From Candidatus Anderseniibacteriota bacterium (GTDB taxonomy: Bacteria > Patescibacteriota > Andersenbacteria > UBA10190): 64,000 bases of DNA. The stretch spans positions 218,544 through 282,543 of the forward strand of contig JACPWO010000001.1 of the NCBI GenBank assembly GCA_016197005.1. The letters are read 5' to 3'. The notes beneath the pieces were generated by a model. The model saw only the letters and a program-made list of their open reading frames with translations. It had not been told where the DNA came from and made no database searches. The position numbers and the translations under genes are program-made. Below, piece by piece: positions 3,536 through 58,091 of the stretch; position 1 is the first letter of the stretch; every line of letters begins with the position of its first letter.

Positions 3536-4308
3536 TCACCCAGCCGCAGCGAGCTGAGATGGCCTGGACTTGGACCGGGACTTCAAGCTATGTGGCAGTC
3601 GGAACTGCGTAATAGCTGCTGTGGCCAGATCCCAGTCAAGAATGGTTCGTTGCTCGGGAATTCCATTCGTGTCGAGCGAGATGATGCCCTTGTGGAAAGC
3701 AAGCATGGGCGAAGTTTTCACATCAATTCCCAGACGATCGCAGATCACGGCCCAGCAGTACTGCTCATCATCGGGGCTGTCAAAGCCCTTGCATACTCGC
3801 CTCATTGCTGACCAAAGGACATCCTTTCGAAACCATTGCATTCTACTTCTCCTAAGGAAAATGGGGTTGGAAACTGTCAACCGCAAGAACGCTAGTTCCC
3901 GCACAAAGCATGCATCGCGATCTCAACACGCTGTCGGTGATTTCGCGGCATTTTGAGAGGGCGACGGCCGGCTGCGGCCAGTTTCTCTCTGGAAGTGCTC
4001 AACCAGACATCGCGTTGTAATACTCCCTCAGCAGCGCGCGACTGCACAACTTCCGCGACCACTAGCTCGGTGTCGTTCGAGATTTCTGACCAGCCTTTTG
4101 ACTGACCAATTCCCTCGAGAACGCACAGTGGTAAATCCCGGTCAGCACTGCGTAGCCGTTTGTTTTTCCGGCTACAGTACTCCCGAATTTGACCCGCAGT
4201 CACCACCAAGCTATCGACACTCCTTCTCTGCTTCCTCACACCGTTTTGTCCCGACATGTCCTTACTCCTTTCGAGACTCTCTTCAAGTAAATAAAGTGTA
4301 CGGTGCAC
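3536..4308 (-). pseudogene. Two short, frame-overlapping ORFs (138 aa and 122 aa) of unknown family in a GC-rich segment. Possibly a disrupted gene of a decayed insert.
   Basis: ORFs 3892..4308 and 3536..3904 lie on the same strand in different frames and overlap by 13 nt. Local GC is visibly higher than surrounding genes. No recognisable motifs. Confidence 0.25.
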
Positions 4309-5334: not shown

Positions 5335-5357
5335 GCGGCCGCTCGGGCCGCTTTTTT
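5335..5357. terminator. bidirectional rho-independent terminator
   Basis: AAAA-GCGGCC-GCTCG-GGCCGC-TTTTTT: a perfect 6-bp GC stem flanked by an A-run and a T-run. It sits between convergent genes 4661..5311 (+) and 5376..6149 (-). Confidence 0.8.
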
Positions 5358-5375
5358 GTAGATTAAGGAATATTT

Positions 5376-6149
5376 TTATCGTTCCATGTCTTTTGCCCAA
5401 CCATCAAGAATTTCAGGTACTTTGCTAATGGAATCAAGGGTAATGTAGTCGTTGTTAAAGGGATCTACTTTCATATAGTTCCAAGTACCTCGTGGAATAT
5501 AAATAGCTTTTACTCCCAACTCCAATGCTGGGTTAATATCCGTTCGGATAGAGTTTCCAATTGATGCAATAAAGTCTTTATCGAACTGCTCTACCGCTTC
5601 CCGCAGAACCTTTGCCTTATCCCCATCCGGTAAGAAGTGGATTGTTGAGAAATATTTTCCTAGATCAGTTGAATCTAGCTTGCGCTGTTGAATATCGGCA
5701 GCTCCGGCGGTCATAAGATGTAATTCGTAGCGGCCATAGCGTACCAGCTCATTTAGCACTTCTACTACATCCGGAATTACAAAGTACGGTGGATCATACG
5801 TTTGGATGATCATAGCCGTCAGCAACTGCTCAATATGCGGTTTTGGCGTACGGCCTCGTTCCTGACATAGCTCTCGGTAGCACGTTACCCAAGTGTTAAT
5901 GAGACGCTTTGGCAAATACTTCTCGTGCGGTGGAATTTCTTCCAACATCTTGTTATCGATGCTGCGAGCCCGTTGCAGAATCTCATCGATTTGTGGAGCA
6001 CGCGTTTCGAACCCCAAAATAATAAAACGCAGACACTCACAAAAAATCATTTCGAATTTGTAGCCTTCATCCACCAGGGTGTCATCTAAGTCGAAGAAGA
6101 CCTGCTTCTTAGTAAATCTATTAGTCATAGTATCGGGAGTGTAATCCAA
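5376..6149 (-). CDS. HAD-superfamily hydrolase
   Basis: N-terminal FFDLDDTLVD (HAD motif I, DxDxT/V); 257 aa. Confidence 0.6.
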   Translation of the reverse strand: MDYTPDTMTNRFTKKQVFFDLDDTLVDEGYKFEMIFCECLRFIILGFETRAPQIDEILQRARSIDNKMLEEIPPHEKYLPKRLINTWVTCYRELCQERGRTPKPHIEQLLTAMIIQTYDPPYFVIPDVVEVLNELVRYGRYELHLMTAGAADIQQRKLDSTDLGKYFSTIHFLPDGDKAKVLREAVEQFDKDFIASIGNSIRTDINPALELGVKAIYIPRGTWNYMKVDPFNNDYITLDSISKVPEILDGWAKDMER

Positions 6150-7251: not shown

Positions 7252-8181
7252 TTATATCTCTACCCGCTCAGCAGTTACTTGTGTTTGTTCAATGCGGACA
7301 AGACCTGCTTTCTTCGCCATCCACATAAGAGCACCAGCTAAGAAGAGCGGTATCCAGGAAATAAGGGGAACGGTCGCCCGGATAGCGAGAAGACCAATGG
7401 TAGCCATCACAATGACGGCGAGGATTCCATTACCGGCTGTTACTCGACGTAAGAAGTCATTGCTGTACATCACTGCAACCTTCGCTACGGTTTCGTTGCC
7501 GTCTAAGTCTTCTAGTTTGAGTGATCGAGCCAGTTCTTGGCGTGCTTGTTCGAGTTGCTGGGGCGGGAGCGATGAGAATGAATCACCCAGCTGCTGGCGT
7601 GCCTGCGCCGAGATAAGTTCATCGACCGTTGCTTGTGGGGTATATCCTGGCAGCATGTTGCTAATAACGGGTGCGACGGGAGCCAGAATGGTGGCAGCTA
7701 CTTCTTCGGATAGACCAAACTTTCCTTCTCGGAGTCCTTCGCGCAAAGCCGGTACTGACAACGCAAAAGCAGCAACGGCAATACCAGCAATAAGGAGACC
7801 AATACCGGGAATAAGAATGTAACGAAGTTGTGTACGAAGGCGTTCAGTAGACTTTCGGACAATACTATCTTGAGCAGCGAATATAAAGAGAGCTAAAAGT
7901 GCACCGCCTACTAAAGATGCAACTGACAGCCGACCGACTATGAACATGGTAACTAGGCCAGTTACTATTATCGACAGGCGTCCCCCAAACCACTTAGCGA
8001 GGAATAAACTAGACAGTGAAGTTATCGCAGCCCATAACAACACTACTGCTACCACGCCCCAAGATAATCCGAGCGTCGCATTTAAATTCACAACTGAAAC
8101 ACTTACGATCAACGCTACCGCGAGCGTGGTAAGAGCCGCGATGATAACAATCCCGACTTCTTTTTGGCGAGAGGGCTGCAT
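7252..8181 (-). CDS. hypothetical polytopic membrane protein sitting between dnaK and dnaJ
   Basis: 309 aa with multiple hydrophobic helices; no recognisable motif. Confidence 0.5.
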   Translation of the reverse strand: MQPSRQKEVGIVIIAALTTLAVALIVSVSVVNLNATLGLSWGVVAVVLLWAAITSLSSLFLAKWFGGRLSIIVTGLVTMFIVGRLSVASLVGGALLALFIFAAQDSIVRKSTERLRTQLRYILIPGIGLLIAGIAVAAFALSVPALREGLREGKFGLSEEVAATILAPVAPVISNMLPGYTPQATVDELISAQARQQLGDSFSSLPPQQLEQARQELARSLKLEDLDGNETVAKVAVMYSNDFLRRVTAGNGILAVIVMATIGLLAIRATVPLISWIPLFLAGALMWMAKKAGLVRIEQTQVTAERVEI

Positions 8182-8209: not shown

Positions 8210-10069
8210 TTACTTTTTCTCTTCAGCCTTACCGTCAACGACGTCGGGTTTTGTTGGGCCTGCCTGACTAGTTTGTCCGTAAATGTGCTGACCCAATTTT
8301 AGCGCTTCTTGTGATAAGGCTTCAGTTGCCTGTTTCAGAACGGCCGTGTCCTCACCTGTCTGTGCTTTCTTGAGAGCCTCTAATTTTTCTTCGATACCCT
8401 TTTTAATATCTGCTGGTGCTTTATCTCCAGCTTCTTTGAGAGCCTTTTCAGTAGCATAGACAAGTTGCTCAGCCTGATTCCTTACCTCTACCGCTTCTTT
8501 CTTCTTCTTGTCATCAGCCGCGAATTTTTCGGCTTCGCTCTTCATACGGGTTACCTCTTCATCGGAGATACCGGATGTGCCCTCGATTCGGATTTTCTGT
8601 TCTTTACTAGTGCCTTTGTCTTTGGCTGAGACACTCAATATACCGTTGGCATCGATATCAAAGGTTACTTCAATCTGTGGCACTCCTCGAGGTGCGGGAG
8701 CGATACCATCCAAAATGAAACGTCCCAAAGACTTATTATCCGCTGCCATTTCCCGCTCTCCTTGTAGAACGTGGATTTCTACTTGTGGCTGACTGTCAGC
8801 AGCTGTAGAAAATACTTGGGATTTTTTGGTCGGCACAGTTGTGTTCTTTTCAATGAGAGACGTACGAACACCACCTAATGTTTCCAACCCCAGTGTAAGT
8901 GGAGTGACATCGAGAAGAAGTACATCCTTAACGTCTCCCGTCATAATCCCACCCTGAATAGCAGCACCGGCAGCTACGACTTCATCTGGGTTAATATTTT
9001 TGTGTGGTTCTTTACCAAATAATTCCTTAACCGCGGCCACCACCTTCGGCATACGAGTCTGCCCACCTACCAAAACTACTTCGTTAATTTCGCTTGCAGA
9101 AAGACCAGCTTCTTTTAAGGCTTCTTTTGTGACGGTAATTGTTTTATCTATAAGGTCAGCCGTTAACTCTTCCAGCTTCGCTCGAGTCAACGTTAGCACT
9201 AAGTGCTTAGGTCCTTCAGGGCCAGTGGTTATGAATGGCTGGTTAATTTCAGTTTGGTTCGAACTTGAAAGCTCATGCTTAGCCCGCTCAGCGGATTCTT
9301 TGAGACGCTGCAGAGCCATTTGATCCTTACTTAAATCTATTCCTTCTTGCTTCTTAAACTCGTTGATGAGCCAATCAATAATCCGTTGATCGAAATCGTC
9401 ACCGCCCAAATAGGTGTCTCCGTGGGTTGCTACAACTTCAATTGTGTCAGCGCTTACTTCCAGAACGGATACGTCAAACGTTCCACCACCTAAGTCGAAG
9501 ACAACGATTTTTTCTTCTTTCTTCTTATCCAAGCCGTAGGCCAGAGCAGCTGCAGTTGGCTCATTTATGATACGTTTTACGTTAAAGCCAGCAATGGTAC
9601 CAGCATCTTTCGTCGCTTTGCGTTGTGAGTCATCGAAATATGCGGGAACGGTAATAACAGCCTCTTTAATTTCGTGTCCAAGCTTACTTTCAGCATCACT
9701 CTTTAATTTTTGGAGCACCATGGCTGAGATTTCAGCTGGACGAAGCCATTTGTCACCAAACTTTATTTCAACACTACCATCACTTCCTTCTCGCACATCA
9801 TATGGCAGCATTGCTTTGGCTTTTTGCACGGCCGGATCAGAAAAACGGCGGCCAATGAGACGTTTGGCAGAGAAAATTGTGTTAGCAGAATTTACAACTG
9901 CCTGGCGCTTAGCTACTACACCCACGAGCCGCTCACCATTTTTAGTGGCAACCACCGACGGAGTCGTGCGATTACCTTCACTATTTTCAATAATGACCGG
10001 CTCGCCTCCTTCAACGTAGGCTACCGCTGAGTTTGTTGTTCCTAAATCAATTCCTAATATTGTAGACAT
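8210..10069 (-). CDS. dnaK: chaperone DnaK (Hsp70)
   Basis: [26 protein letters not shown] signatures; 619 aa. Confidence 0.97.
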
Positions 10070-11303: not shown

Positions 11304-12464
11304 TTATGTGGCAAGGGGATGAACCACCAATAGAGCTTTAGCCGCATTGGTAGGGTTGATAGAAATGTCGTGAATAGCGTAGTTCGGCAAACCCAACGAG
11401 AAGGTATTCCAGGCTTGCCCACCATCCTCCGAGCGATATACGACGCCATTAATGGCCACGAAGATGCGATTGGCATTCGTGGGACTGGTACGAACCACGA
11501 CAGAGTTAAATGTTTCCGCTACTTCTACCGGAACAGAAAGTTGCAGCCAGCTTTGTCCACCATCACGAGTAACCACGGCGCCATCATTAACACCGACTAA
11601 CAGTGCTTGTGGGAAACCAACGATATATGACACATCAAGAACGTCTCGTTCTCCCCCGCTCAGAAACGGTGTTTTCGGAATACCAATAACAGCCGGTACT
11701 TCTATGGCTGTTTGCGTGTTGTTCGTGATACGGAGAAGTCGTTTGGATTCTGTTATGACAAGAAGCTCTCCTGGAGTGTGCGGCGAAACAACTAAGGTAC
11801 GAATACCCATTTGCTTACTCCCAATTGCGATTGCTGGTCCTTCCGGTTGAACGGTATAGAAAGTACGCCATACTTTGGCTGCCTGTTCTCCAATAAAGAG
11901 AGACCCTAAGCTCGTACCACCATAAATCCGATCTGCGTTAAAAGGATCAGGCTCGAGCGTTAAAACTACAGAAGAAGCACTCTGACCGTTGCCACCAACA
12001 AGCTTAAAACTTTCCTCATTAACTGGGGTTGGTACCGTAAATACAGCGTGCCAACTTTTCCCTTCATCGAGACTCCGTACAACATATCCTTGTCCACCAG
12101 CATCTCGCCCAGCAGCGACAAGAACACCGCTTTGCAAAGCAATAACGTCAGTGGCAAACGTCAGCGGAGTTGGAAAAATCTTCCAACTTACACCATCATC
12201 GTGAGATATAACGATTCCCTGTTCACCGGCAGCGATATATATCGATTGGGGGTCGTGAGCCGGTCGATGAATATTTTGCAGTGGAAACTGCGCAATGTAT
12301 TCGCCTTCAGTGGTAGTAACTTGTACTGACTGTTCAAAGAGTGCCCCAGCACTTTCTGATCGATATACTCCCCCAGCAGATGGTGGTGGTACTTCCTTAC
12401 TACACCCAGACAACCCAACAGCCGCGACTAGGGCCACTGGCGTAATTATGCTGTAAAACTTCAT
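11304..12464 (-). CDS. lipoprotein with BNR/Asp-box repeats (Ycf48/sialidase-like beta-propeller)
   Basis: Lipobox LSGCS after a signal peptide. Repeated S/DxDxGxxW motifs (DGVSWKIF, GKSWHAVF, DGGQSWLQL, DGGQAWNTF). Confidence 0.65.
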   Translation of the reverse strand: MKFYSIITPVALVAAVGLSGCSKEVPPPSAGGVYRSESAGALFEQSVQVTTTEGEYIAQFPLQNIHRPAHDPQSIYIAAGEQGIVISHDDGVSWKIFPTPLTFATDVIALQSGVLVAAGRDAGGQGYVVRSLDEGKSWHAVFTVPTPVNEESFKLVGGNGQSASSVVLTLEPDPFNADRIYGGTSLGSLFIGEQAAKVWRTFYTVQPEGPAIAIGSKQMGIRTLVVSPHTPGELLVITESKRLLRITNNTQTAIEVPAVIGIPKTPFLSGGERDVLDVSYIVGFPQALLVGVNDGAVVTRDGGQSWLQLSVPVEVAETFNSVVVRTSPTNANRIFVAINGVVYRSEDGGQAWNTFSLGLPNYAIHDISINPTNAAKALLVVHPLAT

Positions 12465-44762: not shown

Positions 44763-45449
44763 ATGAAGACCTTCCCTCTCTTTTTAGCCGTTTTTGGCTT
44801 TGCCTCCCTCTTTTTCTTTGGGCTGGGCGTTGTTGCGTTAATGGTCACCCCAGTGGTTGCCAGCTTAACGGTGGGCAAAGAGGCATACCAGCCTCTCCTG
44901 CCAGTTAGCGAGGCTCGCGAGGAAGGTTTCCTGGATGTTAAGGAAAACCCCGGAAAACAGATGTATCCTGCCCTCACGACGGAAGGACAAAGCTTGCCTC
45001 AAACAAACCGTATTGTCATTCCCGCGCTTGATGTCGATGTCCCAATCATTATGAGCCCTTCGTTGGAAGATGTTGATGTTATCGCCACTCTCAATGAAGG
45101 TGCGGCCTTGTATCCCAACGGTGTACTGCCAGGACACTTAGGTAACCTCTTCATCTCTGCTCACAGCACTGGCGAGCCATGGAAGGGTAAATATCGTTTT
45201 GCTTTCCTGCGGATTAATGAGCTACAGCCAGGAAACGTTTTGCATATTGATTACAATGGCACTCGCTACACCTACACCATGACTGATCAGGAGATTGTAA
45301 CTCCAACTCCCGATTACCGCGTGGTATCTGATCGTCCGGTGCCAACACTTTCGCTCATGGCCTGCTGGCCAATTTGGTCAACCCAAAAACGCATGCTTAT
45401 TCACGCTGACCTCACCAACGTCACCAAACTGACACAGCGTCCAGCTTAA
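44763..45449 (+). CDS. sortase-family transpeptidase
   Basis: N-terminal TM; catalytic His (LFISAHS), TLSLMACWP Cys motif and a downstream Arg; 228 aa. Confidence 0.8.
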   Translation: MKTFPLFLAVFGFASLFFFGLGVVALMVTPVVASLTVGKEAYQPLLPVSEAREEGFLDVKENPGKQMYPALTTEGQSLPQTNRIVIPALDVDVPIIMSPSLEDVDVIATLNEGAALYPNGVLPGHLGNLFISAHSTGEPWKGKYRFAFLRINELQPGNVLHIDYNGTRYTYTMTDQEIVTPTPDYRVVSDRPVPTLSLMACWPIWSTQKRMLIHADLTNVTKLTQRPA

Positions 45450-47609: not shown

Positions 47610-48992
47610 TTAGAAGAATCGGCGGGCTAAGAACGCTAGGCCGCTTGCTCCTCCAAAAAGGTTAAAGAGAGCGAAAGAAGCAGTTCCACCAGTGCGAGCG
47701 GTTACCGGCACCTGAACAATTTGATTTACAATGTGCCTTTCAATTATTGTCTCAGTCACGCCAGCCACTTCTGGCTCTCGTTCAACAATTGTGGTGTCTT
47801 CATCTTCATCACAAACGTCATGGTCATCAGAACACGCTTCGATAGTGTTGTGAAGATTAGCTCCATTAGGCGCACTGTCTTTTACCGTAGCGGTAATGTG
47901 GTAAGTCTTTGACTCATTTTCATCTAAGTGAATTCCCGTCCAACGAACAGTTTGTCCAGAGATAGAACCACCGCTGCTGACAGATGTAATTGTGAGGTAG
48001 GATGGGACATGATCTTCTATTTCGACGTCATGGAGGTCTACGTCTCCCGTATTCTCGACTTCAATTTCATACGTCAGGCTGTGCCCAGGACGCGTGATAT
48101 CTCGATTGTCCGTCTTAGTTACTCGAATGGCTGGATCGCCTGGTGCTGGGGTAGGTGTAGGAGTTGGCGTGGGTGTAGGGGTTGGCGTCGGAGTTGGTGT
48201 AGGCGTCACAGTTGGCGTTGGAGTCACAGTCGGAGTTGGTGTCACCGTGGGAGTAGGAGTTATGGTTGGCGTTGGTGTAATTGTTGGTGTAGGCGTAGCG
48301 GTTGGAGTAGGCGTCGGAGTTGGCGTGGGTGTAGGGGTTGGCGTTGGAGTAGGAATGCCAGCAAAATTGAGCCAAATGTTAACTGCTGTTGCTCGATTAG
48401 TGGCAAAGGCTTCGTCACTCAAACTAAATGAAGTGGTTGGAGTAAACTTGCGTAACCACTTCCCTACCACCTGCAGGGTTACTTTTGTTTCTCCTGCTTT
48501 GAGACTTGATAGGTTCAGGATGTGACTACCGGTTCGACTAGCGAAACAATACAGCGTGCCATTACAGAACTTCTCGCTATACACATCATCAGTGAGCATG
48601 ATCCAGTTGCTCTGAGCTGTGCCCTCGTAGTTACTGTGGTGCCCACCCATTTGGTCAAAACGACTCAGGACCCGAGCATTGAACACGATGTTATTACATA
48701 CTAAAAAGTCGACTCGGTAACTAAACGGAACGGCTGTTATGTCATATGTACCGGCCGCAGCATTGTGGATTGGAGAATTTACGAAAAGCTGAATAACAGG
48801 TTCATTACTGAGACGTTTTGGCAAATCATCATATCCTGTTGTAAGGCGTGGATTAATAACGGTAATACCATTTGAGCCAGCGCCAGCAGCTTTTTCTAAG
48901 TTGGCAGTAAATAACAATGCACCGAGCACCATCAGGGCACTAGCTAAGAGATACGGAAAGAAACGGAGGTTCTGTTTTACTAGGCTACTCAT
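47610..48992 (-). CDS. surface protein: N-terminal signal peptide, (TP)n linker, DUF11 (conserved repeat) domain, C-terminal sorting-signal-like tail
   Basis: Linker [42 protein letters not shown]... DUF11-like IRVTKT...[29 protein letters not shown]-terminus VPVTARTGG + hydrophobic [17 protein letters not shown] + RRFF. Confidence 0.75.
48115..48375. repeat. hexanucleotide-periodic tandem DNA repeat encoding the (TP)n linker
   Basis: GGTGTAGGAGTTGGCGTGGGTGTAGGGGTTGGCGTCGGAGTTGG... has ACNCCN periodicity on the coding strand. It generates spurious antisense GVGVGV ORFs. Confidence 0.8.
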
Positions 48993-49118: not shown

Positions 49119-50816
49119 TTAGAAGAACTTGCGGAGAACGAAGGCTAGACCGCCAGCGCCACCGAATAGGTTAAGGAGAGCGACCGAAGCCAGACCGCCC
49201 GTTTTGGCCGTAATTGGAACTGGAACGATACCATAACTTGTGCCAGCTACATCTTTGACTACTGTTTGCGTGATAATGTGCTGAACAGTTTTATGAGAAG
49301 TTCCAGCTACCTTGCCCGCGTTATCTACACTGGTCGAATCACTATCTTCATCACAGACATCGAAGTCATCTGAGCAAACTTCTACTCGGTTCGACAACAG
49401 GACTCCGTCAGGAACATTGCTTTTAACAGTGACGGTAATAGTGAATGTCTTGGTGTCGTTTTCTCCGATAGTAATACCGTCCCATGTAACTTTCTGACCA
49501 GCAATTGTGCCACCATCACTAGCTGACTTGATTGTTAAGTAGGATGGTACGTTGTCTTCAATGTGGATGTCGTGAATATCTACGTCACCCGTGTTCTCGA
49601 CTTCAATTTCATAGGTAAATGTATTGCCCGGTTTAACGAGATTCTGACTGGCTGTCTTCGTTACTCGAATATCTGCGTCATCAGGATCGGGAGTTGCCGT
49701 TGGGGTAGGCGTAGGAGTTGGCGTGGGTGTCACGGTGACCGTTGGAGTTGGAGTTACCGTAGCAGTCGGGGTTGGAGTCGGTGTCGGAGTTATAGTCGGC
49801 GTAGCAGTCGGAGTCACCGTAGGCGTCGCTGTGGGTGTAGCTGTCGGGGTAGATGTCGGTGTTGGAGTAACAGTTGCAGTGGGTGTTGGAGTTGCGGTTG
49901 GGGTTGGAGTAGCTGTAGGTGTCGCGGTCGGAGTAACTGTCGGGGTTGCTGTTGGTGTGACAGTAGGAGTCGCCGTTGGCGTAGCTGTTGGCGTAGCTGT
50001 AGGAGTAGCAGTTACAGTCGGCGTGGGAGTCGGGGTATCAGTAGGTGTTGGAGTCGGAGTAGCGGTAGGCGTAGGAGTTGGCGTGGGTGTAGGGGTACCA
50101 GTAGGAGTAACGGTCGGAGTCGTTGTTGGTGTAGTGGTTGGTGTTGCAGTCGGCGTGGCTGTAGGAGTTGGAGTGGCGGTTACCGTCGGAGTTGGGGTTG
50201 GAGTACCTAATACTGACGTGTCATAAAACAAAACATACTCGTCAATCCTTGGTCCAGCCGTCAATACAAAGCTGGCAACATTTGGAGCTGAATCGTAAAT
50301 TGTTACCTCATCTTTTAAAATACGACCGAGTTTCTCTCGTCCGTTATTTGGTCGCTCACTTCGTTCACGGCGAACACCATTTGAGCCACCGGTAAATGTA
50401 GAGCCATCAAGAATGATGAGACCGGCGGCACCAACTTTCCCGCGAGCAACATCACCATCAACTTTAATCTTGATCCAACCAGGGCCACGTTGCAGGGCTA
50501 AGCCGGTTGGATATACTGGTTCGGATTCAACAATAGGTTGGCCGCCAGTCGCGACTGGGAAGGTTTCGTTATCTTGGACAATTTGACCGCTCCCTAATTT
50601 TACAGTTGGCGTCATAACGCTCCGTCGAGTGGAGAGAACGGCACTAAAATCTACTCGAGCGTTAATGACTGGTGTCAAAGCTTCGGCAATATGTGTTTGG
50701 ACAGATACGAACGCAAGAATTCCGACAACAAGAAACGCCCCAGACAAACTGATAAATGGCGTTGAGATTCCAATCTTCTTTGCGAAAATTTTCTTTGACA
50801 GTATTTCCTTAAACAT
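49119..50816 (-). CDS. surface protein paralog: signal/TM, roughly 150-aa (TP)n-type linker, DUF11 domain, C-terminal sorting-signal-like tail
   Basis: Linker [36 protein letters not shown]...; DUF11-like [47 protein letters not shown]; C-terminus [11 protein letters not shown] + [20 protein letters not shown] + RKFF. Confidence 0.75.
49690..50215. repeat. roughly 520-bp hexanucleotide/dodecanucleotide tandem repeat encoding the (TP)n linker of the second paralog
   Basis: GTTGGGGTAGGCGTAGGAGTTGGCGTGGGTGTCACGGTGACCGTTGGAGTTGG... continuous GTNGGN-type periodicity. Confidence 0.8.
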
Positions 50817-50966: not shown

Positions 50967-51398
50967 TTACTGATCCCAGAAGGTCCGGCCGGTTTTGTAA
51001 GATTCTACATATGACGGAACAGTCGGAAAAACTGGTTGGGGCAGATTATCCATGTCATACCAAGCCCAGCCTTCACTTTTGTTTGGCTCCATTAATTTTG
51101 GCTCTCCGCTTTTCCAATCTGCAGCAAAAGCCAAGTCAACATAATGCTTAGGGGCAAACTCCTTTAAGTTGTAGAGCCTAAGAAAACGAATGTTATCTAT
51201 CTCTAAATCTGTCTCTTCTTTTACTTCTCGCCGCACTACATCTTCAAACGATTCCATATATTCCATATGTCCTCCTGGCCACGCATACATGTTTTCTCCG
51301 TGGGATCCCTTTCTTACTCCCAGTAAAACCTTGCCATTTTTAATAATCATGACACCTATACCAACTTTGGGACGATTTTGTTCGGTCTGGTTATTCAT
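50967..51398 (-). CDS. NUDIX hydrolase
   Basis: Nudix box GGHMEYMESFEDVVRREVKEETDL; 143 aa. Confidence 0.8.
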   Translation of the reverse strand: MNNQTEQNRPKVGIGVMIIKNGKVLLGVRKGSHGENMYAWPGGHMEYMESFEDVVRREVKEETDLEIDNIRFLRLYNLKEFAPKHYVDLAFAADWKSGEPKLMEPNKSEGWAWYDMDNLPQPVFPTVPSYVESYKTGRTFWDQ

Positions 51399-51969
51399 GA
51401 GAATACTCTAACAGTTCATCTAGCACTTGAGGTAACTCTGTCACACCATCTCCCTCGGTAAAATGTCCCATGTTATGCATAACGATCACTTTCGCATTCA
51501 GCTTTTGCTCAAACATTTGCTTGTTCTCTTCCACTGCCCCAAAGTCATCATTGTCTGAAATAAAAACTGAAAACTTTTGAGTTGTTTTTAAGATCTTTGA
51601 AAAATCAATGGGTGTTTTCATCCATGGTTCTGCTACTAACTCTGTCTCTTCGTCTTCAAGGTTTTCTAATATAAACCAACCAGCAACAAAAACACATCCA
51701 CCTACCTTTTTGTCTGAATGTTTTTCTAAATATCTCATAATCGTTTGGCAGCCAATGCTATGACCGACAAAATATGTATGCTCATCAAGGTTGCCGACAA
51801 CCGCTTCTAATCGGTCCACCCATTTCTCAATGACAGGTTCATCATCACGAGACATTAGAGGCACATTTACTTCAAATCCTCGCTGCTCCAGTTGCTGCTT
51901 AAGCCATGGAAGCCAGTGTTCGTCCGGCCTCCCGCTCCAGCCGTGAACAATAAAGACTCGATTATTCAT
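51391..51969 (-). CDS. alpha/beta-fold serine hydrolase (YdeN/RBBP9-like esterase family)
   Basis: VFIVHGWSG...GHSIGCQ nucleophile elbow; 192 aa; 8-nt overlap with the downstream NUDIX gene. Confidence 0.6.
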   Translation of the reverse strand: MNNRVFIVHGWSGRPDEHWLPWLKQQLEQRGFEVNVPLMSRDDEPVIEKWVDRLEAVVGNLDEHTYFVGHSIGCQTIMRYLEKHSDKKVGGCVFVAGWFILENLEDEETELVAEPWMKTPIDFSKILKTTQKFSVFISDNDDFGAVEENKQMFEQKLNAKVIVMHNMGHFTEGDGVTELPQVLDELLEYSHE

Positions 51970-52427
51970 GTGGTAACTATATATGATTTTAGGGGAGCGT
52001 CAGCAAAGTACTTTCCACCAAAAAAGTTCTTGATCATTTCGTCGTGGGTTGGAAAGATTGCAGCTGGCAATTTACTGGGTTCAAACCACCCCAACTCGTA
52101 ACATCGATCCGGTTCAAGATTTTCTGGCTCTCCTATAACTTCTTTTGCTAAAAATCCGAGCTGAATATAGTGACCACGGCTCCCGTTCGGAGTGTTAACC
52201 AGTGTTCGAAACTCCAGTTCGGTAGTAGGAGCTATTAGATTCGTTTCCTCCTTAAGTTCTCGAGCTGCTGCATCCGCTATATTTTCTCCTTTCTCTAAGT
52301 GGCCACCAGGGAGAGCCCAGGTACCATCGCCGAATATATTCTTCCTTTTCCCGAATAGAAGCTTGCCCTCACGCATTACGAACACGTTCACGCCAACATA
52401 CATTGTATCGTAGGTATCTGTAGTCAT
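51966..52427 (-). CDS. NUDIX hydrolase
   Basis: Nudix box GGHLEKGENIADAAARELKEETNL; 153 aa; 4-nt overlap with the downstream gene. Confidence 0.8.
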   Translation of the reverse strand: MTTDTYDTMYVGVNVFVMREGKLLFGKRKNIFGDGTWALPGGHLEKGENIADAAARELKEETNLIAPTTELEFRTLVNTPNGSRGHYIQLGFLAKEVIGEPENLEPDRCYELGWFEPSKLPAAIFPTHDEMIKNFFGGKYFADAPLKSYIVTT

Positions 52428-52465
52428 TTATTCTAGTTTATGCTTCCTTTTTTACTCGCTCAAGT

Positions 52466-52885
52466 TTACCTATTTCTTAGATAAAAGAAGTCACTGAATA
52501 TTTTGTCGAGATCTACAAGATCTGTATATTCACTTACCTGGAGACGCGGGTTACCCGCTATCATAGCAGAAAGATGTCGATCGTTTGCCGGTCGGAAAAT
52601 ACATATGATCTTTTTACCTAATGATTCAGCCATAGCAATTTCGTATCCGACGCCAAGACTGGGGCTTGTTACTTCAGCAACGACTGCATCAGACTGGGTT
52701 AGCCAGTTCACATCGCGAGCAAAAATATCCGTATCCTTCCGCGCTGTTTCTGTCTCTACAACTTTTACATTACCTACATGTTCAGTGAGAACAGTTCCGA
52801 ATTTTTCCAATTGTTTAATAATCTCAAAGTAAAGCGCTTGATCCTGCCTACCACCTCTAATTGATCCAGCAAAATATATTTTCAT
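52466..52885 (-). CDS. 2'-deoxynucleoside 5'-phosphate N-hydrolase (DNPH1/Rcl-like, nucleoside 2-deoxyribosyltransferase fold)
   Basis: MKIYFAGSIRGGRQDQALYFEIIKQLEKFGTVLTEHV matches the DNPH1 N-terminal signature YFCGSIRGGR.D...FGTVLTEHV nearly residue for residue. Confidence 0.8.
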   Translation of the reverse strand: MKIYFAGSIRGGRQDQALYFEIIKQLEKFGTVLTEHVGNVKVVETETARKDTDIFARDVNWLTQSDAVVAEVTSPSLGVGYEIAMAESLGKKIICIFRPANDRHLSAMIAGNPRLQVSEYTDLVDLDKIFSDFFYLRNR

Positions 52886-52914
52886 AAATACGGTATATTG
52901 TTTTTACTATATCT

Positions 52915-53520
52915 ATGAACCAAAAACTCGTCATTTTTGATTTCGATGGCGTCATTATCGACTCGTTCAAAACGGTGTTTGATATTACCCGCCTAGAAAG
53001 ACCTACTCTGACTGAACAAGCGTACAGAAAATTATTCGAAGGTAATATTAATGATGTAAAAAATCTCAGTCCTTCATCGCAAAAAATAGATTTCTTTGAT
53101 ATATACAGTAAAAAAGCAGCGTCCCTTTTACTAATTCCTGGGGTTGTCGAACAAATTAAAAAAATTTCTGACTACTACGATCTTACGATTGTATCTTCTA
53201 CTACGACTCCTATTATTGATAATTTCCTAAAACAACATGATCTTAGGGATTACTTTAAAGAAATACTGGGTAACGATGTTGCCTTCAGTAAAGTAACAAA
53301 GTTTAAAATGTTATTTAAACAGTACCAGATCTTAAATACTGATGCAGTCTACATCACAGATACTCTTGGCGACATTCGTGAAGCAACACAGGTAAACCTT
53401 CCCTGCATTGCCGTTACCTGGGGATTCCACGATGAAGACTTATTACGTAGTGGCAGCCCAGCTCGTTTAATAAATAATCCAAAAGAACTTGTACCAAAAG
53501 TTTTTGAAATTTTAGCGTAG
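52915..53520 (+). CDS. HAD-superfamily phosphatase (subfamily IA)
   Basis: LVIFDFDGVIIDS motif I; 201 aa. Confidence 0.75.
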   Translation: MNQKLVIFDFDGVIIDSFKTVFDITRLERPTLTEQAYRKLFEGNINDVKNLSPSSQKIDFFDIYSKKAASLLLIPGVVEQIKKISDYYDLTIVSSTTTPIIDNFLKQHDLRDYFKEILGNDVAFSKVTKFKMLFKQYQILNTDAVYITDTLGDIREATQVNLPCIAVTWGFHDEDLLRSGSPARLINNPKELVPKVFEILA

Positions 53521-53721
53521 CGTTGTTCTTTAGTAGTTACTATTAACGAATTTGACGTTTCTTCTTGCGTACATAAATATATTAAATATATGAATCCTCG
53601 CACAAACATTATTGAAATGCGTAAGCTTGCATACCTGAAACATTGGCTAACACCAGTGCCGGGTTTTTGTGCGTACGGAATATATAAACATTAGATTCTA
53701 GTTACTATTTTCCTTACTCAT

Positions 53722-53748
53722 AAACCCCCGGCAAATGCCGGGGGTTTT
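53722..53748 (+). terminator. rho-independent terminator
   Basis: CCCCCGGC-aaat-GCCGGGGG followed by TTTT. It lies about 200 nt downstream of the HAD gene and may terminate an sRNA. Confidence 0.75.
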
Positions 53749-53792
53749 AATTTCCCCACGTTAGTTCTTTGCAAACAAGAAAGGTGCGAATC

Positions 53793-54023
53793 ATGGCAAC
53801 GTCTAAAAACGACCAGGCAGTTGAACTTTTGATTGAGCAGCTAAAAAGTGATCGTCTCAAAAAGGCAGTCTTTGAGCGACTATTCCCTGGACACGGGGAA
53901 GCCGTTCTCGCCCTGCACGGACGGCACGACTTACTATCACAGATCAAGTACCAGGTAAGTCTTGGCCCACCCCAATCAATCTCACCCTGTAACTGCATTA
54001 ACTGCGGATTTGGAGACGTCTGA
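53793..54023 (+). CDS. small hypothetical protein (76 aa)
   Basis: AAGAAAGGTG RBS before ATG 53793 (MATSKNDQAV...). Overlaps the next small ORF by ATGA; terminator downstream. Confidence 0.35.
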   Translation: MATSKNDQAVELLIEQLKSDRLKKAVFERLFPGHGEAVLALHGRHDLLSQIKYQVSLGPPQSISPCNCINCGFGDV

Positions 54024-54241
54024 TGGAAACAAACCACGATCGCATTGAAAAATTGTATAACACTGTTCAATGGAATCCACGGTGGGGTCAGGAGCCAGTT
54101 TTTACCTGGAGGTCGCTACCTCCACGGTCAGCAAGTTCGAGAATGGATTCGACTGAATCCACCAGTGAGCAATCTGACCGAGGCGGGTTATCATACCCGG
54201 AACGCTTCTCTTCCCAGTCCTCAATTGATCTGATGCATTAG
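54023..54241 (+). CDS. small hypothetical protein (72 aa)
   Basis: ATGA-coupled to the preceding ORF; followed by a terminator at 54255. Confidence 0.3.
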   Translation: METNHDRIEKLYNTVQWNPRWGQEPVFTWRSLPPRSASSRMDSTESTSEQSDRGGLSYPERFSSQSSIDLMH

Positions 54242-54254
54242 CAGTCAGTCATGT

Positions 54255-54286
54255 ACGCACGCTTACACGAAGCGTGCGTTTTTCTT
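54255..54286 (+). terminator. rho-independent terminator
   Basis: ACGCACGCTT-acac-GAAGCGTGCGT followed by TTTTTCTTT. Confidence 0.7.
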
Positions 54287-54312
54287 TACAATTTGTGAGA
54301 ATGCGTAGTTGC

Positions 54313-54741
54313 TTATAACTTTAGTTCAAAAATGTTTGGTGGCTTCGCTTCTAAATCCGAATATCTAATCCAAGTTGGCTTCACTTTAAACCAGCGCTGA
54401 TCGGATCTCTCGGCAAACTTTTTTGAGCGAGGATTTTTCTTAATATGTAAATCTCGGTACCGCTCCATTTCTGAACCTTTAATTTCTATAGCTTCGCCTT
54501 CGTACTGTACTGTAAGAGGTTTTCCAGGATCGTTACCAAGCGTAATTGCAACATGGGGTCTATTGATCAAGTTGCGGTACTTTCGAGACTGATTAGAAGT
54601 ACCAAAAATAAGGTCCAAATTACCTGCCTCTGTTATGGCTACCAATGCAGATTCCGGCTTACTTTGCTCATTCACAGTCGCCACAACTCCTAAAATCTGC
54701 GTCGCGATAAATTTACTAATTAACCTCTTATTGTCTTCCAT
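54313..54741 (-). CDS. pyridoxamine 5'-phosphate oxidase-like FMN-binding split-barrel protein
   Basis: 142 aa; VATVNEQSKPESALVAITEAGNLDLIFGTS...PHVAITLG resembles the PNPOx-like / general stress protein 26 family. Confidence 0.55.
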   Translation of the reverse strand: MEDNKRLISKFIATQILGVVATVNEQSKPESALVAITEAGNLDLIFGTSNQSRKYRNLINRPHVAITLGNDPGKPLTVQYEGEAIEIKGSEMERYRDLHIKKNPRSKKFAERSDQRWFKVKPTWIRYSDLEAKPPNIFELKL

Positions 54742-54742
54742 T

Positions 54743-54769
54743 GCAGGGATACTTAGATCAGCTTAGAAC
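54743..54769 (+). repeat. copy 1 of a conserved 27-nt intergenic motif
   Basis: GCAGGGATACTTAGATCAGCTTAGAAC; 23/27 identical to copy 2. Contains the direct half-repeat TTAGAY-N5-TTAGAAC. Confidence 0.6.
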
Positions 54770-54889
54770 TTTATTATGCCTGATGGGTTATTAACTCCCA
54801 TACCTTGATGGTCTTTAAGTTTATGCTTCGTTTGTATAACTTTGTATATGAGGTAATGGTGCACACTTTGAACTAAGAAAGGAAACGAC

Positions 54890-55114
54890 ATGAGTACTCC
54901 TTATCAAGAACACCCCGACTCTAATGTGAGTCAGGCCCTAACTCGTCTCTGTGATGCGTTGTGCAGTTGGGAACGAGCAACTGGAAGAACTTCGGTACTT
55001 GTTCTTCGTGAGTCTGGGGGTTTTCACTTCCGAGCTGATAGTGGCAAACCTCTGAGCTCAGATAACGATGACATTCCTGACGAACAACTATTTCGGATGC
55101 TCAGTCAGGAATAA
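54890..55114 (+). CDS. small hypothetical protein (74 aa)
   Basis: AAGAAAGGAAACGAC-ATG RBS. Terminator immediately downstream. Confidence 0.4.
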   Translation: MSTPYQEHPDSNVSQALTRLCDALCSWERATGRTSVLVLRESGGFHFRADSGKPLSSDNDDIPDEQLFRMLSQE

Positions 55115-55142
55115 ATCAAGTACTTAATGCAGTCTTTTGTTG

Positions 55143-55176
55143 ACCGCAAGCACACCTGCATCTTGCGGTTTTTTCT
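55143..55176 (+). terminator. rho-independent terminator
   Basis: ACCGCAAG-cacacctgcat-CTTGCGGT followed by TTTTTTCTTT. Confidence 0.7.
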
Positions 55177-55193
55177 TTGCATTAATTTTCTTA

Positions 55194-55220
55194 GCAGGGA
55201 TATTTAGACCAAGTTAGAAC
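55194..55220 (+). repeat. copy 2 of the 27-nt intergenic motif
   Basis: GCAGGGATATTTAGACCAAGTTAGAAC. Confidence 0.6.
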
Positions 55221-55290
55221 CTATTCCTTACGGTGCCTGTTGGATAGATGTAGTGAAAAGACTTGAAAATGATCAACTATTATGGTATAG

Positions 55291-55542
55291 TTGTCTGTGA
55301 TCCACGCTACAAATCCCCAGGAAGATACCAACCTTATCGGAAATTCTACCGAGGTTTTTGTGACGTACTACAATAGAAATATTCCGGATGCCTTTCCTCA
55401 TGCTACTCGCAAGACGCTAAATGTGTTTAAGGCTCAATATCCATCGTTATTCAAGGAAAACGGAGAATGGATTATCGACAAGCACCGAAAAAAGTATATG
55501 GATTGGCTCGCTTCCTACCACGATTCACAAGTCACGCCCTAA
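55291..55542 (+). CDS. doubtful small ORF (TTG start in the ORF track). The region may instead be a transcribed non-coding unit.
   Basis: No ATG start. A good promoter-like element, TTGAAA (55263-55268) / 17 nt / TATAGT (55286-55291), ends at the proposed start codon, which argues against this start. Confidence 0.2.
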   Translation: MSVIHATNPQEDTNLIGNSTEVFVTYYNRNIPDAFPHATRKTLNVFKAQYPSLFKENGEWIIDKHRKKYMDWLASYHDSQVTP

Positions 55543-55569
55543 ATTCTCAGTACGTAGCTTGCCATAAGA

Positions 55570-55596
55570 GCAGAAGTATTTAGACCGAGCTAGACC
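55570..55596 (+). repeat. copy 3 (more diverged) of the 27-nt intergenic motif
   Basis: GCAGAAGTATTTAGACCGAGCTAGACC; 21/27 identical to copy 2. Confidence 0.5.
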
Positions 55597-56205
55597 CTAC
55601 TGAGACTTAATCCAGTTCTTAAATTCAACAAAGTTTTTATACAAAAATCCCCTGCCTCCTTTTTTCTCATATAGCTCAATTACATCAGATTGGTTATCAA
55701 TCATTAGTGATTTTGAAATATTCTTTTCTCCTAGCTTTTCTAAGGCAATATCAAACAATCTTCCGTTCTGTTCCTTTTTAAGAAAACCATAGTCAGCGGA
55801 ATTTACGACTGCATCAAATTTTTGACTAAGGTTGTTATTTTTGACCGTGATTTCGGAAAATACATCCATATTATCGGTAACTAACCCAACTTTAGTGCCT
55901 TGTTTCCTTAGAGTATTTATGAGAGCTAGTAATTGATCATCAAGCTTCATGAGTCTTACGCTTTCCTCAAATGCCTCCTTGAGAATCTCTACATCTATCC
56001 CTGTTCTACTCGCAATATCATCGTTTACTTGATCAGAGGTAACTTCTCCCCGCATCCATCTGCGGACGAGCTCACGGTTACCCTCAAAAACATTCTTTGC
56101 GATCCAGTCAGCAATTTCAGAGTGTTCTGGTTTGAGTGTTGTTGTATAAAAATAGTCAAAACAAAGTACGCCGTCAAAATCAAAAAGAATTGTTTTAAAA
56201 TTCAT
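55597..56205 (-). CDS. HAD-superfamily hydrolase
   Basis: ILFDFDGVLCFD motif I; 202 aa. Confidence 0.7.
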   Translation of the reverse strand: MNFKTILFDFDGVLCFDYFYTTTLKPEHSEIADWIAKNVFEGNRELVRRWMRGEVTSDQVNDDIASRTGIDVEILKEAFEESVRLMKLDDQLLALINTLRKQGTKVGLVTDNMDVFSEITVKNNNLSQKFDAVVNSADYGFLKKEQNGRLFDIALEKLGEKNISKSLMIDNQSDVIELYEKKGGRGFLYKNFVEFKNWIKSQ

Positions 56206-56235
56206 CAGCTCGGATATATAGACCAGTTAAAATTT

Positions 56236-56496
56236 TCAATCAAAAGATATTACTAGAAAGCCATGCTTTTCTACATCGGCCTTTGGCCAAAACTTTACAT
56301 CATTAGTTTTTAGAACATGAGTTACTACTTTCTCAATTTCTCTTCCGGTATAGCTCTTAGTTTTTGGATCCCATTCTTTAAGAAGAAGTAGGTCACCCGG
56401 ACTGCATTCCCAGTCAGCTAACCTTAACTCATATTTTTTCTCACCATCAAAAATTCTTTGGAAATACTCAGGCCAGACTTTTTTCTCTTTTTTCAT
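56236..56496 (-). CDS. ASCH/DUF3850-like small beta-barrel protein
   Basis: 86 aa; EYFQRIFDGEKKYELRLADWECSPGDLLLLKEW resembles ASCH-type PUA-like domains. Confidence 0.45.
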   Translation of the reverse strand: MKKEKKVWPEYFQRIFDGEKKYELRLADWECSPGDLLLLKEWDPKTKSYTGREIEKVVTHVLKTNDVKFWPKADVEKHGFLVISFD

Positions 56497-56752
56497 ATAT
56501 GAAGTATTGCACTAAAGTTACGCCCCACATGATTATGCCAATGGAAAATGAAGCCAACGGTAGCCATGCACGTGTCAAAGTGAAAAATCCGATTGATGAG
56601 GCGTAAAACGCAAGAGCGATGAGGATTGTCATCAAAGGTTGGCCGGATCGTTTTTCCTGGTAGTTCTTTTTGATTTGCGCTGGAATACCGACGAGTACAA
56701 GAGCCAGAGAAAAAATACTCACGAGTAAACTCAGTGTGAATTGAAGATCCAT
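56468..56752 (-). CDS. small hypothetical membrane protein
   Basis: 94 aa, three TM helices. Confidence 0.35.
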   Translation of the reverse strand: MDLQFTLSLLVSIFSLALVLVGIPAQIKKNYQEKRSGQPLMTILIALAFYASSIGFFTLTRAWLPLASFSIGIIMWGVTLVQYFIYEKREKSLA

Positions 56753-56777
56753 GCGGGTCTAGTTTGATCTTTGAACT

Positions 56778-57224
56778 TTAGCTACCGTGATATCCACGAA
56801 ATGCTCGAGCGATGGCCCTATATTGTCCCATATATTTAGCTTGTTTATGACCTTGCATCCAAACACTCCATTCGTCATCTTCGATTTGGGGATCAATCCC
56901 CGCTAAAGCAGTCCAATTACTCCATAAGTTTGCATAGTGAGATGCTTTCTCGGAGTGATCCTCAACGAACTGAACCAACGCTTCCTTTTCGTAACTATCA
57001 AAAAGCTCATCCATTGCACCGGCCGTTAACCTTGACTCATCACCCATTGCCTTGATGCGCTCCCGTATCTCCGAGTGTATTTGCATAACATCCGAGTCAT
57101 CTTCCCAATTTTCTTCTTCGATAATGCGGTTTGCCTCTGTTATCCAACCAGCTTCGTTTGGTTCCTCTGGTGAAAATGAGAATCTTGGAACTTTTTCAAA
57201 ACCCATGTCTTTATATTCATTCAA
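56778..57224 (-). CDS. acidic hypothetical protein
   Basis: 148 aa, Asp/Glu- and Trp-rich; no recognised motif. Confidence 0.4.
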   Translation of the reverse strand: MNEYKDMGFEKVPRFSFSPEEPNEAGWITEANRIIEEENWEDDSDVMQIHSEIRERIKAMGDESRLTAGAMDELFDSYEKEALVQFVEDHSEKASHYANLWSNWTALAGIDPQIEDDEWSVWMQGHKQAKYMGQYRAIARAFRGYHGS

Positions 57225-57287: not shown

Positions 57288-57363
<76 letters not shown>

Positions 57364-57374
57364 AATATTGTTTT

Positions 57375-58037
57375 TTAAGTTTCCTCTATTGTGAACTTTC
57401 TTGCAAGAAGCTTGTAAAAACTTTCTATTTCTTTGTATAAACGTACATCATAGTATCTAACGGAGATGCAACCCGGATAGCCTTCTTTCTTATTTTTACC
57501 AGAATTTTTCTTCCGATATACATAAAATTTTTCTGAAGGAATTTTGGTTAACTTTGACCAAAATTTAATTTGCTTTTCTTGATTATGATAAGAATGAAGA
57601 TGCAGCTGTGCACGAAATTTATTTTCTTTTATCACAAAGCAGGCACGTAGAAGAGATAAAAAGAGCGCAATCATTTCTGGGTCAGAATTCATAAATGCTA
57701 CTGATCCACGCCCCTTCTCTCCTTCCGACCAATACAGAGCAGAACATATTAGCTTTCCAAGGGGCATGCTTATTGTGAGGTTACTAAAGTCCCTTTCTGC
57801 TTTCTGGTGAATTACCTTGTCTCTATTCCACTTTTTTTCTAGTACCATTTTCCTTCCTCGCTGATTACCTATTTCTTTTCTTTTTTCAATTCTTCTTTTT
57901 GCTTTCTCTCCCAGGACTACATTCCCTAACCACACAGAGCAGGTGCTTTTAGAGATTCCAAGCATCTTGCTTATCTCTGGATATGTTCTTCCAAGCTTTC
58001 TTAAGGAAATTGCTTTTGCCTTTAATGCGGCTTTCAT
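57375..58037 (-). CDS. free-standing LAGLIDADG-family homing-endonuclease-like protein with N-terminal HTH
   Basis: N-terminal HTH (ISLRKLGRTYPEISKMLGISKSTCSVWL); single degenerate LAGLIDADG block ICSALYWSEGEKGRGSVAF followed by the typical amphipathic helices (EMIALFLSLLRACF). Lys-rich; 220 aa. Ends 11 nt from tRNA-Trp. Confidence 0.55.
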   Translation of the reverse strand: MKAALKAKAISLRKLGRTYPEISKMLGISKSTCSVWLGNVVLGEKAKRRIEKRKEIGNQRGRKMVLEKKWNRDKVIHQKAERDFSNLTISMPLGKLICSALYWSEGEKGRGSVAFMNSDPEMIALFLSLLRACFVIKENKFRAQLHLHSYHNQEKQIKFWSKLTKIPSEKFYVYRKKNSGKNKKEGYPGCISVRYYDVRLYKEIESFYKLLARKFTIEET

Positions 58038-58091
58038 AAACCAATGAAGGAGGTTATATAACCTCCTTCATTGTATCATGTTTAGCTTAAT

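Follow-up and report, generated by a model that had tools for sequence, protein, structure and literature searches.

In a 64-kb window of a Candidatus Anderseniibacteriota genome (i.e., the whole stretch of 64,000 nucleotides analysed here), a tRNA-Trp gene is followed by a row of small accessory genes that are separated by copies of a short motif. The copies form a real and non-random repeat family. The DNA was assigned to an uncultured Candidatus Andersenbacteria population represented by GCA_016178385.1 and by Logan assemblies from a single project. We consider it reasonably probable that the copies are attachment-site (att)-type junctions left by successive site-specific insertions at the tRNA-Trp 3' end, and that they bound small accessory-gene cassettes. 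The position and strand of the copies, their conservation between genomes, the hybrid junctions with the tRNA in one relative and the differing cassette content were observed, while any present activity of the sites is inferred.

An initial annotation of the window had reported three copies of a 27-nt motif. These copies are real: by direct count, copy 1 (54743) and copy 2 (55194) are identical at 23/27 positions, and copy 3 (55570) agrees with copy 2 at 21/27. Copies 1 and 2 are exact matches of the degenerate 27-mer GCAGGGATAYTTAGAYCARSTTAGAAC, which had 0 matches in 100 shuffles. An independent repeat search of the window yielded a single 31-nt family, consisting of the same three copies and a weaker fourth; this fourth copy and the tRNA-Trp gene had both been overlooked. 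Moreover, the motif had been placed on the plus strand, whereas the orientation that matters is minus, i.e., the strand of the tRNA. The copies and the tRNA gene are located as follows:

57288..57363, minus strand: tRNA-Trp with a CCA anticodon (ARAGORN and Rfam), 3' end ...GGGTTCGAATCCTGATACCCCTGCCA
56207..56237, minus strand: motif copy A4, weak, GAAAATTTTAACTGGTCTATATATCCGAGCT (65% identity in the repeat search, gapped-scan score 30)
55569..55599, minus strand: motif copy A3 (copy 3), TAGGGTCTAGCTCGGTCTAAATACTTCTGCT (E=0.18 with the other-genome profile described below)
55193..55223, minus strand: motif copy A2 (copy 2), TAGGTTCTAACTTGGTCTAAATATCCCTGCT, the best-preserved copy
54742..54772, minus strand: motif copy A1 (copy 1), AAAGTTCTAAGCTGATCTAAGTATCCCTGCA, with the PNPOx-like ATG (54741) directly after it

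A gapped scan on both strands (25,584 scan positions) gave these four copies the top scores of 60, 60, 36 and 30 over a background maximum of 26. All four lie on the minus strand and no more than 2.6 kb downstream of tRNA-Trp, and they are the four best matches of the 64 kb. A possible fifth, gapped copy at 56753-56779 scored at background level and was discarded. As an independent test, a profile made solely from the copies of other genomes was run on the window. It recovered A2 (E=1.2e-7) and A1 (E=0.005), while A3 was marginal and A4 not significant. The copies are spaced 376-638 nt apart with real genes in the intervals; given this spacing, the uniformly direct orientation and the lack of an inverted partner in the window, we rejected a CRISPR array and a miniature inverted-repeat transposable element. 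Spacing, orientation and the non-palindromic motif likewise spoke against a dif/pdif reading, which we rejected. Read on the minus strand, a copy consists of a conserved 16-nt arm (GTTCTAACTTGGTCT), about six variable bases and the core CCCTGC, which is visibly decayed in A3 (TTCTGC) and A4 (CCGAGC). The window version of the motif presents stop codons in all three frames.

Related loci were reached via the genomic context of homologues of two genes at the locus, namely a 74-aa protein encoded between A2 and A1 and a 500-aa gene beyond rpmG. In the first locus (L018, anchor protein 34% identical), four copies of TAGGTTCTAACTTGGTCTCTCCACCCCTGCG, nearly identical to one another, and some weaker ones come after tRNA-Trp on its strand; in the second (L021, anchor 53% identical), two copies do so. 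In a third (L019), the 74-aa gene adjoins tRNA-Trp, with no repeats and no array. An nhmmer profile detected nine strong copies across three genomes (i.e., the window, L018 and L021), all of them downstream of tRNA-Trp and on the tRNA strand; the remaining ~60 kb of the window had none, nor had twelve unrelated loci. A2 shares a 20-nt exact match with three L018 copies and 26/27 positions with L021 8381-8407, and A1 is identical to L021 8374-8409 at 31/36 positions. The motif is thus conserved at the same locus in related genomes. Beyond these, the pattern TTCTAANNTGRTCTAARTATCC had four matches in 185,579 species genomes, in unrelated archaea and Clostridium. This equals the chance expectation, and the motif is therefore not widespread. 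Set against the refuting condition that came with the initial annotation, the outcome is mixed.

Genomes with anchor proteins of just 34-53% identity have exactly the same arm, GTTCTAACTTGGTCT. Outside coding sequence, a comparison of the arrays gave clearly significant matches for the motifs and the tRNA only. Because the identity of the arm is kept across diverged genomes in which other non-coding DNA finds no match, a selected site is suggested rather than neutral scars. This bears on a rival explanation, by which the copies are inert: decayed pseudo-3'-halves of tRNA-Trp from ancient prophage or island integrations, kept alike by occasional gene conversion with one another and with the tRNA, and having no present function or cassette mobility. 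It would fit the visible decay of A3 and A4, the missing integrase and the vertically inherited look of the shared cassette genes, and the identical 38-nt copies within L018 could reflect gene conversion. However, neutrality is hard to fit to an arm of 16-20 nt that stays identical where other intergenic DNA is unalignable, and the tight packing of stop codon, motif and start codon (see below) suggests that site and gene move as one unit. We regard inert remnants as an improbable account of the array.

With the copies in place, we turn to their relation to the tRNA, which we propose as the attB-like anchor of the array. The same CCCTGC forms, in tRNA-Trp, the end of the acceptor stem together with its discriminator base, and the window tRNA end CCCCTGCCA shares this core with the motif copies. 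A shared core of 6 nt is about as long as the overlap region of tyrosine recombinases. After CCCTGC, A2 reads on TAAGAAAAT and the tRNA CAAAGAAAT, and the similarity of A2 to its own tRNA-Trp 3' region is significant (p=0.001). Judged by its bases, A2 looks like an attR-type junction of conserved arm, CCCTGC and a stretch resembling the tRNA 3' flank. The arm itself differs from the T-arm of the tRNA (GGGTTCGAWTCC) and is conserved in the three genomes. The other five tRNAs of the window have no clustered or adjacent 3'-end repeats, and their matches at up to 2 mismatches are scattered singles.

Hybrid junctions with the tRNA are seen directly in L018. Here, the remainder of the motif equals the last 11 nt of the locus's own tRNA-Trp and the next 4-6 nt. 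The 17 nt TCCACCCCTGCGGATAC are identical in the tRNA-Trp 3' end plus flank and in the copy at 5357-5387, and 15 nt of the same region recur identically in the copy at 3874-3904. Compared with their own tRNA, the two best L018 copies reach p<0.0005 and the other two p<=0.008, and this similarity exceeds that to the tRNAs of the other genomes. At the sequence level, the tRNA is demonstrably a recombination partner in L018, while the window and L021 share just the 6-nt core and some flanking bases.

L018 furthermore contains a second repeat family (family B) of 126 nt in four copies, which alternates with the first and ends in CACCCCTGC(GGAT):

L018 37-162, 1840-1965, 3233-3358 and 4759-4884: family B copies, whose end is the tRNA-Trp 3' end

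In the orientation opposite to that of the tRNA, family B encodes a conserved peptide (QGCWDDYRTFKWLDKV...stop). Its reading frame is open across the core solely in the copy at the L018 contig end, and the contig ends inside this open reading frame (ORF). By analogy to dsiB in Dehalococcoides, family B looks like fragments of a gene that spans the att site. The 46-aa peptide yielded no homologues, and no copy of it was found in the window. In two genomes, a AAGGACGGTTTGA block is located about 50 nt downstream of a core (L018 1788-1800, L021 7453-7465; E=0.28, not significant); the site may have a conserved arm on its right-hand side to which this block belongs.

The resemblance of the motif end to a tRNA end could also be explained at the RNA level. 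Here, the motif would be a tRNA-like processing signal in a long transcript from rpmG/tRNA-Trp, in which a tRNA-maturation nuclease cuts after CCCTGC(N) and thereby frees leaderless mRNAs. A start codon 1-4 nt further on in three copies and the preference of the genome for leaderless-type starts would agree with such punctuation. However, no conserved structure exists at the motif (RNAalifold on nine copies with flanks: -0.15 kcal/mol, 4 pairs, no covariation), a 5' acceptor strand for a tRNA-like minihelix is missing, and the distance from the T-loop-like part to the core is 5 nt longer than in a tRNA. Several copies are, moreover, followed by genes in reverse orientation. We therefore think this explanation very unlikely.

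The units between the copies are listed below in the reading direction of tRNA-Trp. Their order is 148 aa, 94 aa and DUF3850, then A4, HAD, A3, 81 aa, A2, 74 aa, A1 and, finally, PNPOx and the genes beyond it:

56778..57224, minus strand: 148-aa gene of unknown function, first after tRNA-Trp (from the ORF list; 142 aa by an independent gene caller)
56468..56752, minus strand: 94-aa predicted membrane protein, 83% identical to an L021 array protein (MerC Pfam match weak and sub-threshold)
56236..56496, minus strand: 86-aa DUF3850/ASCH protein (Pfam PF12961, E=2.9e-17)
55597..56205, minus strand: HAD-family hydrolase cassette (Pfam PF00702), with A4 upstream and A3 downstream
55297..55542, plus strand: 81-aa gene of unknown function (independent gene caller, GTG start at 55297), a reverse-oriented cassette between A3 and A2
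54890..55114, plus strand: 74-aa gene of unknown function, which lies as a reversed unit from A2 to A1
55143..55176, plus strand: ACCGCAAG...CTTGCGGT and then TTTTTT, serving the 74-aa gene as intrinsic terminator (hairpin 55143-55169)
54313..54741, minus strand: PNPOx-like gene of 142 aa (Pfam PF01243), starting 1 nt past the CCCTGC of A1

The motif is found in the gap that separates one gene's stop codon from the start of the following gene. In 5/10 copies, the upstream same-strand gene has a stop codon that falls within the first 10 nt of the 31-mer or overlaps them, and the start codon of the next gene is found 1-4 nt past the core in 3/10. For example, A4 occupies the entire spacer that runs from the DUF3850 stop codon (56236-56238) to the HAD ATG (56205), its end being 2 nt from this ATG, and the HAD stop codon is TAG, i.e., the first three bases of A3. 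Most cassettes are minus-strand genes (HAD and PNPOx in the window; NUDIX, deaminase and others in the relatives). Some units comprise 2-3 genes and some genes are reversed; the stop-motif-start syntax fits many of the units. The two small plus-strand genes are cassettes in reverse orientation.

The cassette-like arrangement and the recombination site, both raised by the initial annotation, have thus found support, as the motif bounds gene units of differing content in three genomes. Its accessory neighbours (PNPOx, HAD and DUF3850/ASCH) were identified as stated by Pfam, and both small ORFs (74 aa, and ~83 aa, here called as 81 aa) were borne out by their homologues. Its general unit of motif, small plus-strand gene and terminator did not hold, since most cassettes are on the minus strand with the stop codon at or inside the first bases of the motif. 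Of the two terminators said to lie just before motif copies, the one preceding copy 2 (55143-55169 and its T-run) was recovered; the other (54255-54279) is ~460 nt away from copy 1 and separated from it by PNPOx on the minus strand. The promoter-like TTGAAA-17-TATAGT was confirmed by a promoter scan at 55263-55291, ahead of the 81-aa gene.

Start codons this close to the motif raise the possibility of a transcription signal, either a promoter (possibly with an operator) for leaderless minus-strand mRNAs, in which a TAAGTAT/TAAATAT box 7-8 nt before the ATG serves as -10 element, or a direct-repeat site of the OmpR/PhoB type, as read earlier from two TTAGAY half-sites. A1 and A4 indeed abut the ATGs of PNPOx and HAD, the L021 copy 8381-8407 is 4 nt from a GTG start, and TCTAA-N5-TCTAA is present in the window copies. 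Furthermore, genes of the window are poor in Shine-Dalgarno motifs (3/46) and rich in TANNNT 5-9 nt before the ATG (14/46, compared to 5.7% of control internal ATGs). However, conservation covers the arm and CCCTGC but leaves out the AT-rich box and the second half-site, which read CTCTCCAC in L018. The second TTAGAY is replaced in all four L018 copies (GGTCTCTCCAC), with the rest retained, and also in the L021 copy at 7380-7406 (GATCCATAAAA); no regulator gene was found nearby, and the OmpR/PhoB proposal was not upheld. In L018, the downstream genes are found at a distance of 94-99 nt, with separate TATACT or TACAAT boxes beside the ATG. A2 and A3 lack a downstream gene on the minus strand. 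In addition, the box within the motif (AAGTAT, AAATAT) departs from TANNNT, and the motif occurs solely behind tRNA-Trp and not at the many other leaderless-type starts of the window. The leaderless promoter was dropped as main explanation because L018 revealed that the '-10-like' part is not conserved, and a transcriptional role appears quite unlikely overall; two copies may have been co-opted as promoters for PNPOx and HAD.

Independent of the motif, the TANNNT box peaks at 6 nt before the ATG (e.g., the starts at 12464, 34534, 39542, 42918, 47527 and 51969). Its frequency and the window-wide scarcity of Shine-Dalgarno motifs suggest, at the sequence level, widespread leaderless mRNAs in this member of the candidate phyla radiation (CPR).

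Returning to att-type junctions, we compared the gene content between the copies, which differs among the three genomes. The arrays share just 1-2 genes per genome pair. The window and L021 have only the 94-aa membrane protein and PNPOx in common, in the same order and with different genes between them, and the window and L018 only the 74-aa gene. The 74-aa unit can be aligned between the window and L018 and comprises the core, ~25 nt, a terminator hairpin, the reversed gene and a motif copy; the hairpin is conserved in L018 at the position of the 74-aa gene terminator. Its left edge is the core of A2 in the window, but the core of the tRNA itself in L018 and L019. This shift is the expected outcome of newer units inserting at the tRNA end, with A2 as a junction of arm, core and old flank. 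The order of insertion was deduced solely from this comparison.

These data would be consistent with the following mechanism. A site-specific recombinase, presumably encoded outside the window, would recombine site-bearing circular DNA with the 3' end of tRNA-Trp, with a crossover within or beside CCCTGC. Such a recombinase, the circular intermediates and the precise crossover point all belong to the model. The tRNA would be left intact, and the new gene or genes would land directly behind it, pushing older insertions downstream. Every insertion would leave one junction, consisting of the element arm, the core and the former downstream sequence, and repeated insertion would build up the observed row of units behind tRNA-Trp.

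Several observations weigh against serial insertion. No recombinase gene was found in the arrays of the window, L018 and L021, and Pfam scans revealed none among 30 larger ORFs of the window outside the array. The genes flanking tRNA-Trp code for rpmG, an HTH_23 protein and hypothetical proteins, without a recombinase domain among them. A viral collection contained no free element with the site, as judged from three patterns (the A arm together with the core, a relaxed form of A, and the B arm) that had 0 matches. The similarity between the window copies and the tRNA is short (CCCTGC and a few flanking bases), A2 alone of the four copies is significant, and a 12-nt query from the tRNA 3' end allowing up to 2 mismatches misses all four. 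In L021, the variable segment TAAATAA differs from CTCCGC in its own tRNA, and co-variation with the tRNA is clear in L018 alone. The cassette genes in common have diverged to roughly the same degree as core genes and show no sign of recent transfer. Finally, the comparison covers three genomes, two of which were reached through genes at the locus, and the genome-wide restriction of the motif was established for the 64-kb window alone.

Both small ORFs appear to be real genes, as judged by their homologues. The 81-aa ORF has 72 representative homologue clusters at E<=1e-3, which make up an uncharacterised family of stand-alone proteins of ~80 aa with no domain assignment and, in the members tested, no informative Pfam match. 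The 74-aa ORF has 13 homologue clusters with 58-75% identity. These homologues reside mostly on phage or mobile-element contigs (L014, L015, L016, L020 and L022-L025 among the loci) that carry integrases, a terminase or DNA polymerase A, with ParB and DUF5131 among the neighbours, which favours a mobile origin of the cargo and hence the insertion model. The family is marked by an invariant W-E-R motif; its C-terminal tail, DDIPDEQLF, is acidic. An AlphaFold model of the 74-aa protein (predicted local distance difference test score of 76.6) folds into a helix, a β-hairpin and a second helix. It had no significant fold match (best E=0.09, template modelling score <0.5), and the sequence had no match in Pfam, PHROGs, PDB sequences or cultured phages. 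An excisionase-like role was thus set aside, as neither sequence nor fold supported it. The 148-aa gene had no match in Pfam or PHROG. The PNPOx orthologue in the L021 array (52% identity) has no motif ahead of it, and we rejected the motif as a general upstream feature of PNPOx genes, given two distant metagenome PNPOx loci (39-44% identity) without it.

Cargo and surroundings of the three arrays (window 50967-56496; L018 431-5262; L021 6683-10404) are dominated by enzymes of nucleotide house-cleaning and salvage. They include three NUDIX proteins, several HAD phosphatases, NT5C, a dCMP deaminase, a nucleoside 2-deoxyribosyltransferase-like protein, PNPOx and ASCH/DUF3850. Between rpmG and tRNA-Trp, a 220-aa gene (57375-58037, minus strand) is found in the window lineage only and is absent in L018, L019 and L021. 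Its sole Pfam match is HTH_23, a LAGLIDADG-like motif was noted by eye, and a 23-nt inverted repeat marks its 5' end (palindrome 58035-58080). It is possibly a free-standing mobile gene of the homing-endonuclease type. Further away, two large adjacent DUF11/DUF7507 repeat proteins (47610-48992 and 49119-50816, both minus strand) are probable surface proteins, with a sortase gene nearby (44763-45449).

How does the array compare to known systems? An integron cassette consists of an ORF and an attC site and is inserted at attI by IntI. Many of the units described here are similar in combining one ORF with a short 3' site, in having the stop codon at or in the site and the next ORF right after it, and in their mostly uniform orientation with few reversed units that have their own promoter; new units would likewise enter at one fixed end. 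Unlike in integrons, no intI was found beside the insertion site, the anchor is a tRNA gene instead of attI, and the site lacks an inverted-repeat hairpin of the attC type, as seen from the RNAalifold result above. In Acinetobacter, pdif modules are small gene modules bounded by 28-bp XerC/XerD sites, with the recombinase encoded by the host. They resemble the units here in their very small size, in sites of ~28 nt and in a host-encoded recombinase acting in trans, but pdif sites are imperfect palindromes in alternating orientation, whereas the present motif is non-palindromic and all copies are direct.

Closest among known cases are the tandem ssrA-specific islands of Dehalococcoides, which are arranged in a row behind a single small-RNA gene whose 3' end recurs as a direct repeat bounding every island (McMurdie et al. 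2011, PMC3146451). A conserved 15-bp motif, not alignable to ssrA, is located just upstream of each repeat; cargo is accessory and strain-specific, some units lack integration genes, and the integrase gene reads across attL (PMC3146451). The islands are many kb long, and 16 have a serine-recombinase integration module (PMC3146451). Their anatomy is the same, the 15-bp motif being the equivalent of the 16-nt arm here, and an integrase that reads across attL is mirrored by the ORF fragment of L018 family B. In contrast, the units described here measure 0.4-1 kb, contain one or two genes and lack a recombinase throughout. They also have less core sequence in common with their target (6 nt in the window, 15-17 nt in L018), which here is tRNA-Trp, and reside in a CPR host; the deep conservation of the site is a further difference. 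In these features, the array behaves more in the manner of an integron. Cis-mobilizable elements (CIMEs) at tRNA genes also form tandem att-bounded arrays that include units without recombination genes, the recombinase acting in trans (PMC5704250, PMC5812530). The present units share this arrangement. However, known CIMEs are deletion derivatives of larger elements beside an integrase-bearing partner, no such partner is seen here, and the regular one-gene unit size is atypical of them. Judged as tandem att repeats, the copies have the appropriate position and orientation in three genomes, a conserved arm that differs from the T-arm of the tRNA and variable cargo that breaks synteny. A recombinase in some of the units, as in tandem integrative elements, was not found among the array genes of the window, L018 and L021.

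A more far-reaching version of the insertion model, which we offer tentatively, is an integron-like gene-capture platform of the CPR. In it, the tRNA-Trp 3' end would be the fixed insertion point, and single-ORF cassettes, each ending in a non-palindromic site of ~30 nt (the arm GTTCTAACTTGGTCT plus CCCTGC), would be inserted and shuffled by a recombinase encoded elsewhere in the genome. The site would be under selection across family-level divergence and supply stop codons to the incoming gene, and the cargo would mainly be enzymes of nucleotide salvage and house-cleaning. No description of such arrays in Patescibacteria was found in the literature.

CPR bacteria (Patescibacteria) combine tiny genomes with a life spent attached to host cells, and descriptions of their mobile elements are few. 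Reading the locus as an array explains its apparently low coding density and its orphan small genes, and the motif offers a landmark for annotating accessory regions in such metagenome-assembled genomes. If a dedicated recombinase uses a site of ~30 nt with a 6-nt core shared with the tRNA, this would constitute a compact new site-specific recombination system. Taken together, a fixed tRNA-Trp hotspot that gains and loses one-gene units would, if our interpretation is true, provide a concrete route of gene flux in the CPR.

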